A stretch of DNA of 21,538 bases, taken from positions 1-21,538 of the forward strand of contig CAZAOV010000019.1 of assembly GCA_964486995.1 (NCBI GenBank), given 5' to 3'. The notes beneath the pieces are model-generated. The model had not been told where the DNA came from. It searched no databases and saw nothing but the letters and a program-made list of their open reading frames with translations. Every line of letters starts with the position of its first letter. The first letter of the stretch is position 1. This DNA is from an uncultured Gammaproteobacteria bacterium. Lineage in GTDB: Bacteria; Patescibacteriota; Patescibacteriia; SG8-24. The position numbers were made by a program, and so were the translations under genes. Positions 4,548 through 14,208 of this stretch are shown here, piece after piece.

Positions 4548-4667
4548 CTTTCGTGGCATGTTAGCATAACTGTAGCTGTAGAGGGGCCTGCCCTCGTCTG
4601 GATTGGCAAATGCTTGTTTCTGCGGGCAGAAGCGAGCTCAGCCGCTACCTATATATAAAGAAGGAAT

Positions 4668-5420
4668 ATGGAAAAAATATCTCCAATATTGAAATCACTC
4701 GGATTGCTGGACAGCGAAGTCAGCACTTATTTGGCTGCTCTCGAAAAAGGTCCGAGCACGGTGATTGATTTGACTAAGGCATCGAAGCTTTCGCGCCAAG
4801 CGACTTACACGGCGATTGAGATACTCACCGAGCGTGGGTTGATGTCTTCGGTATTGCGCGGCAAAAAGCGTTTTTATACCGCCGAGCCGCCAGAAAAGTT
4901 ATTGTCTTATGCCAAACGGAAAGACCAAGAACTGCACGAGCAAGTTAATGATTTAGAACGCGCTCTGCCCGAGCTGGAGCTGCAAATCGGCGGAGAGAAA
5001 CCGGTTGTAAAAGTTTTTGAAGGCAAAGAAGGCATCAAGACCATTATTCAGGATATTGAGACTGCAGCAGTAGATGAGTCGTTCGAGATTACAGATGTTG
5101 ATGCGATGTACCGTGTGCTTACACCAGAAGATTTAAAAGAGATGCGCGGCAAATTAAAGCGAAAGAAACGCCAGGTGTACGGTATTTACACCCCAAGTGA
5201 GGCGCCCAAGTCAGAAACCGTGACCAGCGAACAGGCGGTGCTGAGTGATGAAGAGATCGGATTTGATTCAAATATCGGAATCTACGGCAGTAAGGTAATG
5301 TTAGTTACGTTCCGCGGCAAGATGTATTCGGTGGTAATCGATTCCGAGCCTCTGGCCGAGGCGATGAAGATATTGTTTAAGCATGCCTACAATGATTTGA
5401 AGAAGCGAAAGAAAAGTTAA
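4668..5420 (+). CDS. TrmB-family transcriptional regulator (winged HTH), paralog 1
   Basis: AAGGAAT precedes the ATG. The N-terminus LGLLDSEVSTYLAALEKGPSTVIDLTKASKLSRQATYTAIEILTERGLM matches the TrmB-type HTH architecture. It is a 250-aa paralog of 10807..11559. Confidence 0.8.
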   Translation: MEKISPILKSLGLLDSEVSTYLAALEKGPSTVIDLTKASKLSRQATYTAIEILTERGLMSSVLRGKKRFYTAEPPEKLLSYAKRKDQELHEQVNDLERALPELELQIGGEKPVVKVFEGKEGIKTIIQDIETAAVDESFEITDVDAMYRVLTPEDLKEMRGKLKRKKRQVYGIYTPSEAPKSETVTSEQAVLSDEEIGFDSNIGIYGSKVMLVTFRGKMYSVVIDSEPLAEAMKILFKHAYNDLKKRKKS

Positions 5421-5443
5421 TGAGAAAATACGAGATAAAATAA

Positions 5444-5469
5444 GACACCGGTCAGCCGGTGTCTTTTGA
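5444..5469 (+). terminator. Intrinsic terminator after TrmB paralog 1
   Basis: AGACACCGGTCAGCCGGTGTCT perfect hairpin followed by TTTT. Confidence 0.7.
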
Positions 5470-6095
5470 AATAAAAAAGGGGCCTGCGCGAGAGTCGCGT
5501 GGTTCCCCTGTGGCGCTCAACCGTTACCCATGCTTCACCTCCTCTGGTCAGGTTGACTCACGAGCCGTCAGTTTTTTGTCGTTGACTGTCTATAGTCTTC
5601 GACCAAAAACGCATCGTTCTCACTCATCTCGTTCGTCATGGGCACCTCTTAATCGTTGGAGCTTGGTTGTTTCCCGTTTGTTGACGTTGACAAAATTTTG
5701 TGAGTCTGACCTGCTGGAGTGATGCTCGGGTTTTTTGAGCGGCGCTAAAAAAAAGTCATTCGATAAATATTTTACAGTCCGCCCACTAGCTGCCTCCTTT
5801 CATGGGTGATTTGTATTTGGGCATTTTCGCATTGCCCCGCCGCAGTCATCAATCATTATTGATATCTACGGCAGGGTAATGCTTTTTTGTCTCCGAGACT
5901 CCTCCATCTCATCGACTCTGTACTATAACATAGATTGGTAATTCTGTCAAGGGTTACAGGACATAGTTGTAAAACGCAGAAAAAGTTACAAATAATCTTG
6001 AAAAACGACAATCAAATACTGGACATTATCTAGTGATAATAGAGTTCATATTTGGCTAATTATAAATAATTATCTAAATTATGTCTAGGAAAGAC

Positions 6096-6124
6096 TTGAC
6101 ATATTTTAAAAACTGTGGTATAGT
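6096..6124 (+). promoter_or_regulatory. Near-consensus sigma70 promoter with an extended -10 and an upstream AT-rich UP-like tract
   Basis: -35 TTGACA (6096-6101), a 17-bp spacer, TGg, then -10 TATAGT (6119-6124). About 200 bp of very AT-rich DNA precedes it (5900-6095). The predicted TSS is near 6131. Confidence 0.65.
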
Positions 6125-6130
6125 CCAGCG

Positions 6131-6828
6131 TCGGAGGTTGAAACAAGCGAATCCGGCAAGCCTGCCAGCAGGCAGGCACAAGCGGAACATTAAAACTTAA
6201 TGTGAAAACAGGAAGGCTGATGACACAGAGTAAGTAGTAAAGATGTCGAATAGCGTTGTCAGGGTAGTAATCATTTCCCCGCACTATATAGGGAACCACA
6301 CCCGACCGCAACGTGAAAAGCATCAAACGAAAACTCGCCATGTCAGCCTGGGGAGGAGGCAGTCTTCCTTCCGCCATAGTTACGAAGAGCGATGGCTTCG
6401 TAGCTGAGGCGGGAGGAGTTGGCGCTCAACCTAGGTAGTCAGTATGCGTTCCGTAACGGTTTGACGCCGTTTCATACTCGAAACGTCGTCAGTGCGGGGT
6501 GGTCCGCGCGCAAACCCGGGAGTGATTTCCCGAAAGTCCAAGTAATTTCGCGGATTACTTGGAGGCCAAACCAGGCTCGAAAAAACCACCTTTCATTCAT
6601 GTGGTGGGTCAGGTTGCGCTTGCAACCTGACCCTCCTATCGGAGCGATCGAGCCGCAATTCGATATCTGCGACGGGAGGCTATTCATAATCGAATACAGT
6701 CATCGCACCACATTAGAGTCTTTCGGCTCGGCGCATGTATTTGCGATGGTCGATACGCATCGGAACAAAGAGAGATTTCGTAACGGCGTCAGCCAACTCA
6801 TAAACAGAAACCTGGTTCGGAGGGGTTA
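6131..6828 (+). ncRNA. Candidate highly structured non-coding RNA or long 5' leader of unknown family, transcribed from the strong promoter
   Basis: About 700 nt carry no convincing ORF but many perfect hairpins: GCCTGC/GCAGGC at 6161-6177, GACGcCGTTTC/GAAACGtCGTC at 6462-6490, CCAAGTAAT/ATTACTTGG at 6537-6561, and a 12-bp GGGTCAGGTTGC-GCTT-GCAACCTGACCC at 6608-6635. GGAGG with 5-nt spacing lies at its 3' end, before ORF 6829. Confidence 0.3.
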
Positions 6829-7095
6829 ATGAATTTGGTTAAGTTGGACGGTCTGCCCGAGAAGCATCTCGTTGAGGTGGCTCAGGCGAACTACGCGACG
6901 GTTCAGCGCTTGTATCCCGTCAGGGAAGCGCGGGAGATGTTGCGCAACGAAGGCGACTGCGGTGATTTCGGCGGCTATCGGCTCGTCGATACGCAGCCGG
7001 CGCGTCACAAGTGTTCGTGTCATGTGTGCCGTCGCTGGCGCAAGTCGCAGAAGCGCGACCGTCGTGCTGAGAGGAGATTCGATATGCCCGGTTAA
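6829..7095 (+). CDS. Small hypothetical protein (88 aa) with a Cys/His cluster and an Arg-rich tail
   Basis: GGAGGGGTTAATG gives a good SD. The protein contains HKCSCHVCRRW followed by RKSQKRDRRAERR. It lies in a GC-rich segment. Confidence 0.45.
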   Translation: MNLVKLDGLPEKHLVEVAQANYATVQRLYPVREAREMLRNEGDCGDFGGYRLVDTQPARHKCSCHVCRRWRKSQKRDRRAERRFDMPG

Positions 7096-7097
7096 CT

Positions 7098-7313
7098 ATG
7101 CAAGTAGTTACTCATCGTGTGAAGAAGTCTCGTCGCTGCCGTTGCAAGGGTGGCATGGCGCGTGAAATGCGGGCTCTTCGGAGCAGCGCGCACCGTCGTC
7201 ACCGACGTTCTGCAGCGGAAGCCTGCAAGATGATCGTTCGGGGAGCTGACCCCGACACCGCTTTCGGGCGTGTGGCCGTCGGTGGCTATGTCACCGAGCG
7301 GGACATCATCTAG
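7098..7313 (+). CDS. Small Arg-rich hypothetical protein (71 aa)
   Basis: The ATG is 2 nt after the upstream stop, which allows coupling. There is no own SD. The protein is very basic (RRCRCKGG, HRRHRR). GC-rich frames here can produce spurious ORFs. Confidence 0.3.
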   Translation: MQVVTHRVKKSRRCRCKGGMAREMRALRSSAHRRHRRSAAEACKMIVRGADPDTAFGRVAVGGYVTERDII

Positions 7314-7558
7314 TGATGAGGCCAGTTAGTTCCGGTTCGCAGGCGAATCGGTTGCGGTAAATCTCGACCGCATAAAACAACGAGTCGGCGTCACCTGCCG
7401 TGAGTGGTGCCCTGCCTCTTTATTTTTTTAAAGAAAGCGGGGTCCCGCCTTAACCGGCGGGAAGCCTTGGGGAAGCAGAGCCCCACTTGATAGCGGAATG
7501 ATTATTCCGCTCCTACCAGAGTTCCGAACTTGGTTCGGGACTGCGCTAGGAGGAATGC

Positions 7559-7954
7559 ATGAAAGCCACTTCGTTTTTCTCTCCGGTTCGTCGTGCAGAT
7601 TACTTCGATTACGTAATCGACCGCGGTATCCGTGTCCCGTTCAACCTGAGTCGGTTTCTTCCTGAGGGTCGGCGTGCGTTCGTTATGGTCATCCCGGTGA
7701 CCGGCGTTCGCTCCGAATGGATGGAAACGTCTGACAACGGTCGGTGGTGCTTCGGGCATACCTCCGGTTGGAACGGCAGCTATCACGACGCTTGGTATGA
7801 GCCTACTGTCTTCGTCTGGGCCTGCGGGTCCGGCAAGTTCAAGCGAGCTCGCAAGAAGTTACATGAGGCTGTCGCCCGCCACAGCGACGCAGAGCGGATT
7901 GATTCGAGCGTCGCTCGATACCGCGCCCGACTGCTTGTGCGTGAGGGTGACTGA
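7559..7954 (+). CDS. Hypothetical protein (131 aa)
   Basis: TAGGAGGAATGCATG gives a strong SD. A hairpin-dense leader precedes it and a terminator follows at 8071-8098. No family is recognised. Confidence 0.5.
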   Translation: MKATSFFSPVRRADYFDYVIDRGIRVPFNLSRFLPEGRRAFVMVIPVTGVRSEWMETSDNGRWCFGHTSGWNGSYHDAWYEPTVFVWACGSGKFKRARKKLHEAVARHSDAERIDSSVARYRARLLVREGD

Positions 7955-8070
7955 AGAAATGCATGCGCGATCGGGGCGGGGGAGTACCGCCTGGCATATG
8001 GACCCGTGGGATGTGCTGAGCGCGCTCCGGGATCAGGCCTGGGAGCATCGTTACATCAACTAGATTCGAA

Positions 8071-8098
8071 ACCCCTCTCTGTTCGGAGAGGGGTTTTT
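8071..8098 (+). terminator. Intrinsic terminator
   Basis: CCCCTCTC-gttcg-GAGAGGGG hairpin followed by TTTTT. Confidence 0.75.
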
Positions 8099-8182
8099 CT
8101 TATCAACAGTTGCGGGCAGACCTTCTATATATAAGTATATATGTGGGCCGTATGTGGCTCTGCTCATTAAAAGGGGTTCGAA

Positions 8183-8830
8183 ATGACCGATGTAAAGTTG
8201 CCGAATCGGCAAATGTTACATGAGATTCTAGAAGATCGCATCAACAACAATCGACGCCGAGTGAAAATTGCAAAGCTGATGGAGCCGTTTTTTGTCCGCG
8301 CCGAGACCGGCATCTATCAACTGTATCGGCGCAAACAGCTCAACAAGCGGCGCGTTGTTTCGGCGCTGAACAAATCACTGCGAGTCAATTCACGGCGGCT
8401 TGAATTCTGCTCGGTTGCGCGGCCAGTTCCGCGGCAGCCATGGATGACACACGATGCGTACATGGCGCTCCTCAACGACTACATGTTGCGCTGTATCTGG
8501 ACCAGCACCAGCGATCTCGGTATGCGTAGCGCATTGAAAGATGCCTACAGACAATACCTGAATCATAACTATCCTGACCTGCTAGCTGAGGCGGACGATA
8601 TTCTGCAAGATTTTTTCGGTAATTCACTCTGGAAGAGCTCCAACGAATCAATGTTTTCCGGCGTAGGCTATGTGCTCGAAGAGTCGTTGAAATATTTTTT
8701 CGCCTTTCAGCTCACCAACAACGCCAATATACAGCAGTGGTTGGATTCGCTTATGCGGTTGTTGCCACGGGCGATTCCGCTGGGCATACGAACCGACCGG
8801 CAAGACACTTGGGTAGTGCTGGTAGCGTGA
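8183..8830 (+). CDS. Hypothetical protein (215 aa)
   Basis: AAAGGGG SD before the ATG. Its stop overlaps the next gene's start region. No recognisable motif; no P-loop. Confidence 0.55.
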   Translation: MTDVKLPNRQMLHEILEDRINNNRRRVKIAKLMEPFFVRAETGIYQLYRRKQLNKRRVVSALNKSLRVNSRRLEFCSVARPVPRQPWMTHDAYMALLNDYMLRCIWTSTSDLGMRSALKDAYRQYLNHNYPDLLAEADDILQDFFGNSLWKSSNESMFSGVGYVLEESLKYFFAFQLTNNANIQQWLDSLMRLLPRAIPLGIRTDRQDTWVVLVA

Positions 8831-8834
8831 AGTG

Positions 8835-9317
8835 ATGAAGATAAGGAAAGTGTTGCTGACTGGCGTTTGTGCCGTGATGGTTGTTGCGGCCTGGTCCTGG
8901 GACGCTCAAGCGCAGGGTGGGGAATACGATTTAATTCGTGACAATCCACATGCTGAGGACATGTACTTTGGTTGGATGGAGGCGGCTATCACGCCGCCGC
9001 ACACCGCTGTTGGTTTGAGCCTAGGCGATAATCAGCTGTCTGTTCGCTGTGTATCGCTTGGACGCATGGTGCAGCATGAGCCGGGACATGGCTATTGCGG
9101 TTTGCATGTTGGGCGGCCGGGTTATCCTTCAGTTGGGATTGGCTTGTCCATGTCTCGCGACATTCGCCCGTTTCCGGATTCGGCTATGGCGATTGATTTG
9201 ACGTTCGGTTGCGCTGGCGTGGTGGCGCTGTTCGAATACGGCGACTATCGGCGCGAGTATCATGTGTTTTTTATGCTTCGCTTAGATCGGATATGGAACC
9301 CGATAAACCGAAGATGA
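8835..9317 (+). CDS. Secreted hypothetical protein (signal peptide)
   Basis: Begins MKIRKVLLTGVCAVMVVAAWSWDAQAQG, a typical signal peptide ending AQA-QG. It is coupled to the upstream gene, whose TGA lies 4 nt before. A terminator follows. Confidence 0.5.
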   Translation: MKIRKVLLTGVCAVMVVAAWSWDAQAQGGEYDLIRDNPHAEDMYFGWMEAAITPPHTAVGLSLGDNQLSVRCVSLGRMVQHEPGHGYCGLHVGRPGYPSVGIGLSMSRDIRPFPDSAMAIDLTFGCAGVVALFEYGDYRREYHVFFMLRLDRIWNPINRR

Positions 9318-9322
9318 GCTTG

Positions 9323-9350
9323 CCGCCTTCTTAATGAGGGCGGTTTTGTT
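9323..9350 (+). terminator. Intrinsic terminator
   Basis: CCGCC-ttcttaatgag-GGCGG followed by TTTTGTT. Confidence 0.5.
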
Positions 9351-9381
9351 ATCCTATAAACCCCCGGCGCAGCCGAAGCAT

Positions 9382-9459
9382 GCCCGTAGCGGCAGAGCTC
9401 GCCACTGCCCGGTTTGGCGAGCGCACGCTTCTACGGGCAGAGACGAGCTCTGCCGCTAA
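9382..9459. promoter_or_regulatory. Long imperfect palindrome / putative operator upstream of the ligase gene. Its right arm recurs at 4622-4648.
   Basis: The left arm GCCCGTAGCGGCAGAGCTCG (9382-9401) is the reverse complement (18/19) of the right arm CGAGCTCTGCCGCTAAGGG (9444-9462). There is a nested CTGCCCG/CGGGCAG pair. The right arm ACGGGCAGAGACGAGCTCTGCCGCTAA matches GCGGGCAGAAGCGAGCTCAGCCGCTAC upstream of TrmB paralog 1 at 22/27. Confidence 0.4.
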
Positions 9460-9560
9460 GGGTCGGCGGCGGTCGCTTACATTGACAAAATGGCCCACTT
9501 GAGATAAAAAATATTATTCGCAATAGTGCGAATTTTTTGTCGCCAGCCTAGGAGATTAAA

Positions 9561-10706
9561 TTGACACCACGTGAGATTATCGGACGACTAAGGGCGCTGG
9601 TAAAGGGTATGGTTTCGGCTCGCGTCAACAATAAGGTAAGACTGCGCGCTTGGCTCAAGGAGAATGAAGCGTATGTGGCCGAATGCCTGGCGTATGAGCG
9701 CAAAGAGGGGATGCCACCCACCACCTCGTTGGTATCGGCGCATTTTCATCCGGATCTGCCGCTAGTCGGGCTCAATTACACCGGTGTGGCGCATAATACG
9801 CTGTATGCCTTCCCCGAAGGTTGGACGCTGCCGCTCAGGTATTGCCGTGGTATCGTGTTTGACCGACGCGGTACACTCGTGGCGTGGCCGTTCGAGAAAT
9901 TCTTCAACTACGGCGAGCATCCCGACTCAATGAATATTCCGGAAGGTCCAATCACCGCCACCGAAAAGCATGACGGCCATTTGGGCATAATTTTCCGGTA
10001 TCGCGAACGGTTCATCATCACCACACGCGGCACGTTCACGCATCAGTCGGCCGCTGTCGGCCAGAAGATGCTGGATGAATTGGCGCGCCAGTATAATTGG
10101 TTCAAGATGTATCCGGAACAGATGACGTTGCTGGTTGAAATCATTCATCCGGAAACTAAAGTGCATCTGGATTACGGCGACGTCGAGCAGCTCATGCTGA
10201 TTGGTGCGCGCCATCATCGGGGGGATTTCTATGATTGCGAACACCGTGCATTGGAGCTCTTGTCCGACATCTTGGGAATGCCCTGTGCCAGTCAGATGCA
10301 GTTCCCGTCGCTAGGAGCTCTGGCCAACTACGTTGCCGACAACTCCGTGGTCACCCGCGAAGGTCTAGTCGCTGCTTACCGCGACGGACCGTTCCTGCGC
10401 CGCGTGAAGTTCAAGTTCCACGGCTACCTCGGCCTAATGTTCAACGCCAAGATGTCGTTCAAGTACGTTCTGCAGCGCATCATGAACGATGACCTAGACG
10501 ATCGCCTCAGCATGATGTCCGAAGAAAATCGGATTAAGGCTCAGAAGTGGGTCGCGCAGGCCATGGACGTGTGCAACTGGCCCGGCGCGCAAAAGGAGCG
10601 CTGGACGCGACTCTACAAGTTACTGCCCGAAGATCAAGACACTCCGTATGCCCGGCAGATTTGCCGTAGCTACGTGAAGTGGCTCGATGAACAAAAAAAC
10701 AATTAG
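9561..10706 (+). CDS. ATP-dependent RNA ligase-like covalent nucleotidyltransferase (Rnl-type). The family assignment is tentative.
   Basis: TTG start after GGAG. Motif I-like ITATEKHDGHLGIIF follows the KxDG pattern of ligases and capping enzymes. LLVEIIHPE and LRRVKFKFHGY resemble motifs III and V (KxK). No DNA-ligase OB or BRCT signatures are evident. Confidence 0.55.
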   Translation: MTPREIIGRLRALVKGMVSARVNNKVRLRAWLKENEAYVAECLAYERKEGMPPTTSLVSAHFHPDLPLVGLNYTGVAHNTLYAFPEGWTLPLRYCRGIVFDRRGTLVAWPFEKFFNYGEHPDSMNIPEGPITATEKHDGHLGIIFRYRERFIITTRGTFTHQSAAVGQKMLDELARQYNWFKMYPEQMTLLVEIIHPETKVHLDYGDVEQLMLIGARHHRGDFYDCEHRALELLSDILGMPCASQMQFPSLGALANYVADNSVVTREGLVAAYRDGPFLRRVKFKFHGYLGLMFNAKMSFKYVLQRIMNDDLDDRLSMMSEENRIKAQKWVAQAMDVCNWPGAQKERWTRLYKLLPEDQDTPYARQICRSYVKWLDEQKNN

Positions 10707-13965: not shown

Positions 13966-13985
13966 CCCGTCACTTCGTGGGCAAC
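13966..13985 (+). repeat. 20-bp exact direct repeat, copy 1 (CCCGTCACTTCGTGGGCAAC)
   Basis: Identical 20-mers occur at 13966-13985 and 16201-16220 in the same orientation. They bracket the methyltransferase, rSAM and precursor genes. The core contains CACnnnGTG. Confidence 0.8.
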
Positions 13986-14208
13986 AGGCGGTCAACGCTT
14001 TGGTGTTGCGGCTGGGGGAGTGATGGGTGAATGGCGTGTCGCGCCGCCAGTACCAGCCGATAATATGGACATCTGGCGAATTATATGCTAAGGTCGTACA
14101 ACAAATTTATACGCGAAACCTATCGAAAGTCAGAATCAACAACCGAATCCAGCCCAGAAGTGGGACTCTCTATATTCTAAGGGGGCGGCCTACAAGCCGT
14201 TCAATTTT

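Follow-up and report, generated by a model that had tools for sequence, protein, structure and literature searches.

The 27-bp motif that recurs upstream of a TrmB-type regulator gene and an RNA ligase gene is only an arm of a longer, directional element of ~85 to 90 nt, and three full-length copies of this element are present in the window (the whole stretch of 21,538 nt that was analyzed, which is a complete NCBI contig). We read the element, with some reserve, as a lineage-specific, REPIN/MITE-like palindromic repeat that has probably inserted in three short promoter-proximal spacers. The contig carries, in order, genes for an L,D-transpeptidase and TrmB-1 (4668-5420), an ORF-poor stretch, ORF 8183, ORF 8832, and the ligase gene (9561-10706), followed by genes for TrmB-2, a cadherin-like protein, a methyltransferase, a radical-SAM/SPASM protein, tRNA-Val, a DHH protein (minus strand), and a major vault protein (MVP) homologue. 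Homologues of TrmB-1 and MVP are named Patescibacteria, Uhrbacteria, and Parcubacteria.

A palindromic element in three full-length copies

The preliminary description of this DNA had reported that the sequences at 4622-4648 and 9433-9459 match at 22 of 27 positions, and we confirmed both the quoted sequences and the match in the window. When the 25-nt core (CGGGCAGAGACGAGCTCTGCCGCTA) was searched with at most 3 mismatches, exactly three sites were found, at 4623-4647 (plus strand), 9387-9411 (minus strand), and 9434-9458 (plus strand); matches were seen in 0 of 100 dinucleotide-preserving shuffles, which bears out the proposal of a shared cis element. The palindrome at the ligase locus is likewise real and longer than had been noted, with 29-nt arms (9383-9411 and 9434-9462) that lie 22 nt apart and are 90% complementary. 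A relaxed scan brought out a further inverted pair at 18275-18299 (minus strand) and 18325-18349 (plus strand), separated by a 25-nt spacer, and this pair is part of a third full copy, diverged and previously overlooked, at 18266-18354. Each copy consists of a short tail on the left, an arm of 26 bp, a 22- to 26-bp spacer, and an inverted arm (bit scores are those of the covariance model):

4563-4648, plus strand: E1, a decayed full-length copy (78 bits), with the tail AGCAT at 4563-4567, a degenerate left arm with indels at 4572-4596, and the spacer at 4597-4622
4623-4648: right arm of E1, well kept, ending in CTAC
9377-9462, plus strand: E2, the most intact copy (97.5 bits), with the left tail AGCATGCCC, the left arm at 9386-9411 (GTAG tagged), the spacer at 9412-9433, the right arm at 9434-9459 (ending in CTAA), and outer CCC/GGG pairs
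18266-18354, plus strand: E3, a diverged full-length copy (81 bits), with the left arm at 18274-18299 (GTAG), the spacer at 18300-18324, the right arm at 18325-18350 (CCAC, equivalent to GTGG), and an additional outer stem, GGATG/CATCC

Homology between the copies extends beyond the motif to cover the spacer and the left tail (AGCAT-N4-GTAG). With the right arms excluded, the scores of the left halves of E1 and E3 against the left half of E2 were each reached by 0 of 2,000 shuffles. The right arm of E1 matches E2 at 22 of 25 positions, and its left arm is far more decayed. All three copies are intergenic (between called genes) and lie in the same orientation within 14 kb, and their flanks are unrelated to one another. 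A covariance model (R1) was built from E1 to E3 and an arm HMM from five arms. The HMM recovered these five arms, by construction, because the model was built from them, and nothing else in the window had an E value of <1; no further copy was detected in the 21.5-kb window with either the arm HMM or R1, and L067 to L076 likewise yielded none.

The preliminary description had also placed a partial version of the motif before ORF 8183. Two exact 10-mers, TGCGGGCAGA (8111-8120) and CTATATATAA (8125-8134), are indeed present there and also occur at the right edge and flank of E1, but the site is not a copy of the element. It corresponds to the following feature:

8110-8143, plus strand: ORF 8183 promoter, TTGCGG-17-AAGTAT, with a TATA-rich spacer, conserved in L072

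Upstream of the L072 orthologue stands TTGCCGACATCTCTTCTATGTATAAGTATGTATG, whose bases align one to one with 8110-8143 of the window (conserved pattern TTGC.G-17-AAGTAT) with no element. Since L072 has the same layout without the element, this stretch is a conserved promoter. Its limited likeness to E1 is probably coincidental; two or more matches to CTATATATAA-like strings occurred in 4 of 100 shuffles.

Each copy is an extra segment in a conserved spacer

The three sites were compared with those of relatives, comprising the syntenic loci L067/L068 and L075/L076 (ligase 59% and MVP 63% identical) and L072, L073, and L074 (TrmB-1 66 to 70% identical). A search of ~108 kb of syntenic and related loci with the covariance model and arm HMM brought up no copy, three ligase loci of greater distance were equally empty, and the covariance model found none in a further 28 kb (L075 and L076). 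TrmB-1 lacks the element upstream in L067, L072, L073, and L074, as does the ligase gene in L067, L072, L074, and L075. Relative to the matching conserved spacer in relatives, each of E1, E2, and E3 constitutes an extra segment. The features that frame E1 and E2 are as follows:

4552-4559, plus strand: promoter-like (extended -10-like) motif CGTGGCAT, conserved upstream of TrmB-1 orthologues
4668-5420, plus strand: TrmB-1, a TrmB-type winged helix-turn-helix regulator conserved across Patescibacteria
9322-9350, plus strand: intrinsic terminator of ORF 8832-9317, bounding the E2-containing spacer on its left
9482-9510, plus strand: ligase promoter TTGACA(AA)-17-TAAAAA, with the -35 box TTGACAAA and E2 upstream
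9561-10706, plus strand: T4 Rnl1-type RNA ligase gene

At TrmB-1, E1 (~86 nt) sits between the CGTGGCAT motif and the start codon at 4668, and its removal returns the motif-to-gene spacing to about 30 nt. The consensus of this motif, CGT(G/T)G(T/C/A)A, lies at -116 before TrmB-1 in the window. It is found at -24 to -58 in L067, L072, L073, and L074 (-42 in L067), and the spacer before TrmB-1 is just 43 to 64 nt in L072, L073, and L074. At the ligase, the -35 box TTGACAAA is conserved in L067, L069, and L071, and a similar TTGAC box occurs in L072 and L074; the gap between the terminator and the -35 box measures roughly 15 to 85 nt in relatives and 132 nt in the window, ~85 nt of which are E2. 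E3 lies upstream of the MVP gene, between the DHH start codon and a conserved block, probably the DHH promoter (GTCAACAGTGCATAATA.CAT..TTTTTTGTCAA), which is 44 nt from the DHH start in L067 and L075 and ~540 to 580 nt from it in the window; the extra DNA consists of tandem repeats and E3. The geometry of all three sites looks like that of insertions. Within ±4 nt of any boundary, the flanks showed no consistent direct repeat of ≥4 bp.

Scanning public genome, metagenome, and viral contig collections with GGGCAGNNNCGAGCTCNGCCGCT returned 66 single hits, all from unrelated taxa that are mostly GC-rich; the window's own copies were not among them. No hit reaches past one arm, and we rejected them as chance matches; the best (L038) falls inside what its translation suggests is a eukaryotic Sin3-like coding region. 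Phage and plasmid collections showed no similarity to the element.

The clustering of the known copies, all within 14 kb and in one orientation, would also fit a local, nonmobile repeat that arose by duplication, gene conversion, or template switching and does not form a genome-wide family. We regard this explanation as unlikely, although there is no transposase in the window, no target-site duplication, and no hit in the public collections scanned, gene conversion from E2 could account for the right arm of E1, and the unrelated tandem repeats that also occupy the E3 region mark the locus as repeat-prone. The flanks of the three copies are unrelated, the clean extra segments in different conserved spacers are what insertion, rather than segmental duplication, predicts, and GTAG-tagged ends combined with a dimer hairpin are typical of mobilized REP-type elements.

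Hairpin folding and decay of the copies

E2 had been put forward as a strong hairpin candidate, and folding agreed: its RNA fold has an energy of -70.9 kcal/mol (z = -6.9), with the opposite strand about equal, and its DNA fold an energy of -34.4 kcal/mol (z = -5.8). E3 folds at -41.7 kcal/mol (z = -3.5) as plus-strand RNA and more strongly, at -52.1 kcal/mol (z = -5.2), as minus-strand RNA. The fold of E1 is no better than those of shuffles (z = -0.2 for RNA and about 0 for DNA). In the three-sequence alignment, the consensus hairpin comprises 33 pairs, with 85.9% of cells paired versus 25 to 45% when partners were slid. Pair changes on both sides numbered 8, compared with 4.8 ± 1.5 in shuffles, and 20 of 500 shuffles reached 8 (n = 3 sequences); with transitions making up most of the changes, chance alone should produce some double changes. 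Covariation support from these three sequences is modest.

The positions that depart from Watson-Crick pairing are 3 G.T and 5 A.C in E3, with no other mismatches, and 7 G.T and 4 A.C in E1, plus 2 other mismatches. This excess of G.T and A.C looks like transition decay from a once near-perfect palindrome. The wobble-favored strand differs between the copies, being plus for E1 and minus for E3, and we accordingly rejected a strand-specific G.U bias as a sign of RNA function.

The E2 and E3 hairpins are very stable, which speaks for a second alternative, a transcribed and functional RNA hairpin. As a 5' leader, a 3' stabilizer, a small RNA, or an RNase III target, it would affect TrmB-1, the ligase, and DHH/MVP through RNA. 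The five A.C positions of E3 would become G.U on the minus strand, which would be transcribed if 18405-18495 drives DHH, and E1 lies downstream of the TrmB-1 promoter-like motif with more G.U on the plus strand. However, the E1 fold is indistinguishable from random (z about 0), strand preference varies between copies, and a transcription-linked C-to-T bias explains the pattern equally well. E2 stands between a terminator and a promoter and is therefore probably poorly transcribed. The element has neither a promoter and terminator forming its own unit nor an Rfam match, and relatives carry no copy; it is quite unlikely to be such an RNA.

If the element is instead an inserted REPIN/MITE-like repeat, as we favor, it would have spread by copy-and-insert, like REPINs or MITEs, with an enzyme encoded elsewhere mobilizing it in trans or with movement by recombination. 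E2 would be the youngest copy, and E3 and E1 would be older and decaying mostly by transitions. Effects on neighboring genes would be incidental; for example, E1 would add about 86 nt to the TrmB-1 leader.

A TrmB operator is improbable

The preliminary description had interpreted the motif as an operator through which a TrmB-like protein regulates its own gene and controls the ligase. In its present form, this explanation holds that an arm with the dyad GGCAGAG-N5-CTCTGCC is bound by a TrmB paralogue that mediates TrmB-1 autoregulation and ligase control. The dyad is perfect (7+5+7) in the right arm of E2, which is also the only arm that clearly folds by itself (7- to 8-bp stem, z = -2.8; the other five arms fold like shuffles). 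In E1, the right arm was kept at 22 of 25 positions while the left arm decayed, and it lies immediately upstream of the AT-rich box preceding TrmB-1. The ligase is also flanked by two TrmB paralogues.

The comparison with relatives nevertheless argues against an ancestral operator. Aligned TrmB-1 orthologues are 62 to 70% identical overall, and five of the six have an identical recognition helix (LSRQATYTAIE.LTERGL), with the sixth (P0127 of L073) differing at two positions. Given this identity, an operator that served ancestral autoregulation would be expected to have persisted, but the element is missing upstream of the TrmB-1 orthologues of L067, L072, L073, and L074, and the motif is absent before the TrmB-1 and ligase orthologues of L067, L072, L073, L074, and L075. 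It is likewise absent upstream of TrmB-2. Homology between the copies spans about 90 nt (~85 to 90 nt), far beyond operator length, and the dyad is lost in E3. This third copy lies beside the unrelated DHH and MVP genes, which does not fit an operator that ties TrmB-1 to the ligase. At TrmB-1 itself, E1 is a ~86-nt insertion with a decayed hairpin that displaces the conserved promoter-like motif. Promoter spacing is inconsistent among the copies, with TTGACA at 22 nt from E2 and at 10 nt from E3, whereas E1 abuts a TATA-rich box. Finally, the adjacency of TrmB and ligase genes is not kept at the ligase loci of more distant genomes. An operator function of the arm is therefore improbable, and these findings give no support to a TrmB-ligase regulatory link.

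As a candidate for the native promoter or operator of TrmB-1, the CGT(G/T)G(T/C/A)A motif is to be preferred to the hairpin arm. The better-kept right arm of E1 could still fit secondary co-option of, or selection on, that arm. A broader version of this idea, to which we likewise give little weight, is that an undescribed type of Patescibacteria mobile element lands promoter-proximally and that at least the right arm at TrmB-1 has been co-opted, as a protein site or as a leader-RNA structure. If so, a core, highly conserved CPR regulator would have been rewired with an RNA-repair ligase and the DHH/vault-protein locus.

TrmB-family operators include the Thermococcales TGM, TATCAC-N5-GTGATA, and the Halobacterium motif TACT-N7-8-GAGTA. 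Like these, the right arm of E2 is a short dyad with a 5-nt center, and TrmB genes are adjacent. Unlike them, the element has an unrelated sequence, is 90 nt long, does not keep the dyad in its other arms, and is not conserved alongside the highly conserved regulator in relatives.

Other features of the element-bearing loci

In the ligase 5' untranslated region (9516-9539), a small hairpin, ATTCGCAATAGTGCGAAT followed by a T-run, lies between the promoter and the Shine-Dalgarno sequence and is terminator-like. Relatives have a leader hairpin of the form CCGC(C)-loop-GGCGG at about 9910-9925 in L067 and about 8425-8440 in L074. The ligase hairpin may be a conserved leader or attenuator.

The 2.7-kb stretch between TrmB-1 and ORF 8183 (5420-8183) contains no ORF matching Pfam and has no Rfam hit. 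It includes strong divergent sigma-70-like promoters (5922-6124) and a terminator (8074-8093). TrmB-1 is followed by a similarly ORF-poor gap in L067, L072, and L074, and patches at 5919-6132, 6262-6417, and 7188-7311 are conserved with L072. The stretch may hold small-protein genes or RNA of a new type. Farther downstream, a 30-nt direct repeat (87%; 13966-13995 and 16201-16230) brackets the methyltransferase and radical-SAM/SPASM genes and adjoins tRNA-Val (16324-16400); L073 has two tRNA-Val-like fragments. The pair of repeats may be att-like and belong to a small island.

The MVP homologue (18588-21221, plus strand; 840 amino acids in the NCBI call) is a full-length bacterial major vault protein, with Pfam matches to MVP_shoulder (4e-17) and Vault_3 (6e-11) and an alignment to residues 339 to 806 of rat MVP (PDB 4hl8/4v60; E = 2e-11). 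It has >3,000 homologues, Parcubacteria and Patescibacteria among them. The gene lies between DHH and ValRS in L075 and is missing from the very similar L067, so its presence varies between close relatives. A vault-RNA-like role for E3 was rejected: the DHH-MVP-ValRS locus of L075 has a 294-nt spacer with no hairpin or repeats.

A noncoding block at 18405-18495 (16009-16099 in L067 and about 9760-9850 in L075) is 77% conserved, above the neighboring coding DNA. With its minus-strand extended -10-like sequence TGGTATTAT, it is probably the DHH promoter, which would put the tandem repeats and E3 in a long DHH leader. The tandem repeats (17905-18250), which are absent from L067 and L075, comprise two 98-nt units (89% match) and a diverged third with an inserted CCCCTGC/GCAGGGG hairpin; each 98-nt unit forms a long hairpin, better as minus-strand RNA (z = -3.9 and -2.7). 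A relationship of these repeats to the arms of the element (about 64% by eye) was dropped, since the arm HMM gave an E value of 11. Directly after MVP lies a near-perfect palindrome (21332-21378; 23-bp arms, 96%), which is likely a bidirectional terminator and is followed by the conserved ValRS promoter/start region.

Comparison with known palindromic repeats

Several classes of element could be set aside. No T-run follows any of the three copies, and a separate terminator is present at 9322-9350, so we rejected the element as an intrinsic terminator. Integron attC sites were rejected because inspection revealed no RYYYAAC/GTTRRRY cores and the window encodes no integrase, and retron or IS605 ends were rejected because the window has no reverse transcriptase or TnpA/TnpB. 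When the ORFs of the window were scanned against Pfam, no transposase, RAYT, reverse transcriptase, or integrase was found. The element belongs to no Rfam family; its sole hit, to mir-2387, is a chance match (24 bits versus a threshold of 93; E = 0.9). To our knowledge, no related insertion sequence has the element's ends.

Reduced Patescibacteria genomes are usually thought to be repeat-poor, and our literature searches turned up no report that connects REP or MITE elements with Patescibacteria. Confirmation genome-wide would make the element a family of REPIN/MITE-like hairpin repeats in such a reduced genome. It could then serve to mark recent genome dynamics and would counsel caution in motif-based regulon inference. 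Among the points that weigh against the REPIN/MITE reading, all copies lie near promoters in one orientation, and only three copies are known, from a 21.5-kb contig.

Bacterial MITEs such as Correia/NEMIS, ERIC/IRU, and RUP are noncoding, imperfect palindromes of about 80 to 150 bp with long terminal inverted repeats. They are intergenic, lie close to promoters or terminators, and are often cotranscribed with their neighbors. The element resembles them as an intergenic, noncoding palindrome near promoters or terminators, and its 26- to 29-nt arms, 90% complementary in E2, correspond to terminal inverted repeats. Classical MITEs have target-site duplications, which none of the three copies shows; the element also differs from bacterial MITEs in having no recognizable outward promoter in its arms.

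In GTAG-REPs, each unit bears GTAG (or GTRG) as a terminal tag on its outer side (PMC3733652). Each unit is a small imperfect palindrome with a stem of 6 to 13 bp, and units form pairs 20 to 100 bp apart; in head-outside (HH) dimers, or REPINs, the units are inverted, with outer tags, and form one long hairpin, and the REPIN of SBW25 is 89 bp (Bertels & Rainey 2011; Di Nocera et al. 2013; PMC3733652, PMC3337134). Unlike these elements, the single arms described here mostly lack a 6- to 13-bp stem-loop of their own, no RAYT is encoded in the window, and the host belongs to a small-genome Patescibacteria lineage. Five of the six arms carry a GTAG or GTRG tag at their outer end (GTAG in four, at 9386-9389, 4572-4575, and 18274-18277 and as CTAC at 4645-4648; GTGG in one, as CCAC at 18347-18350), and the sixth has the degenerate TTAG (CTAA at 9456-9459). 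The arms are separated by spacers of 22 to 26 nt, within the range of REP pairs, and E2 and E3 fold. As in REPINs, decayed copies occur beside an intact one, and the REP literature also describes singlets. Taken together, the element shares with GTAG-REP HH dimers an extragenic location, found for all three copies, two inverted units of ~25 bp that form with their spacer a long near-perfect hairpin, outer GTAG/GTGG tags, a partly conserved spacer, and G.T pairs in the stems.
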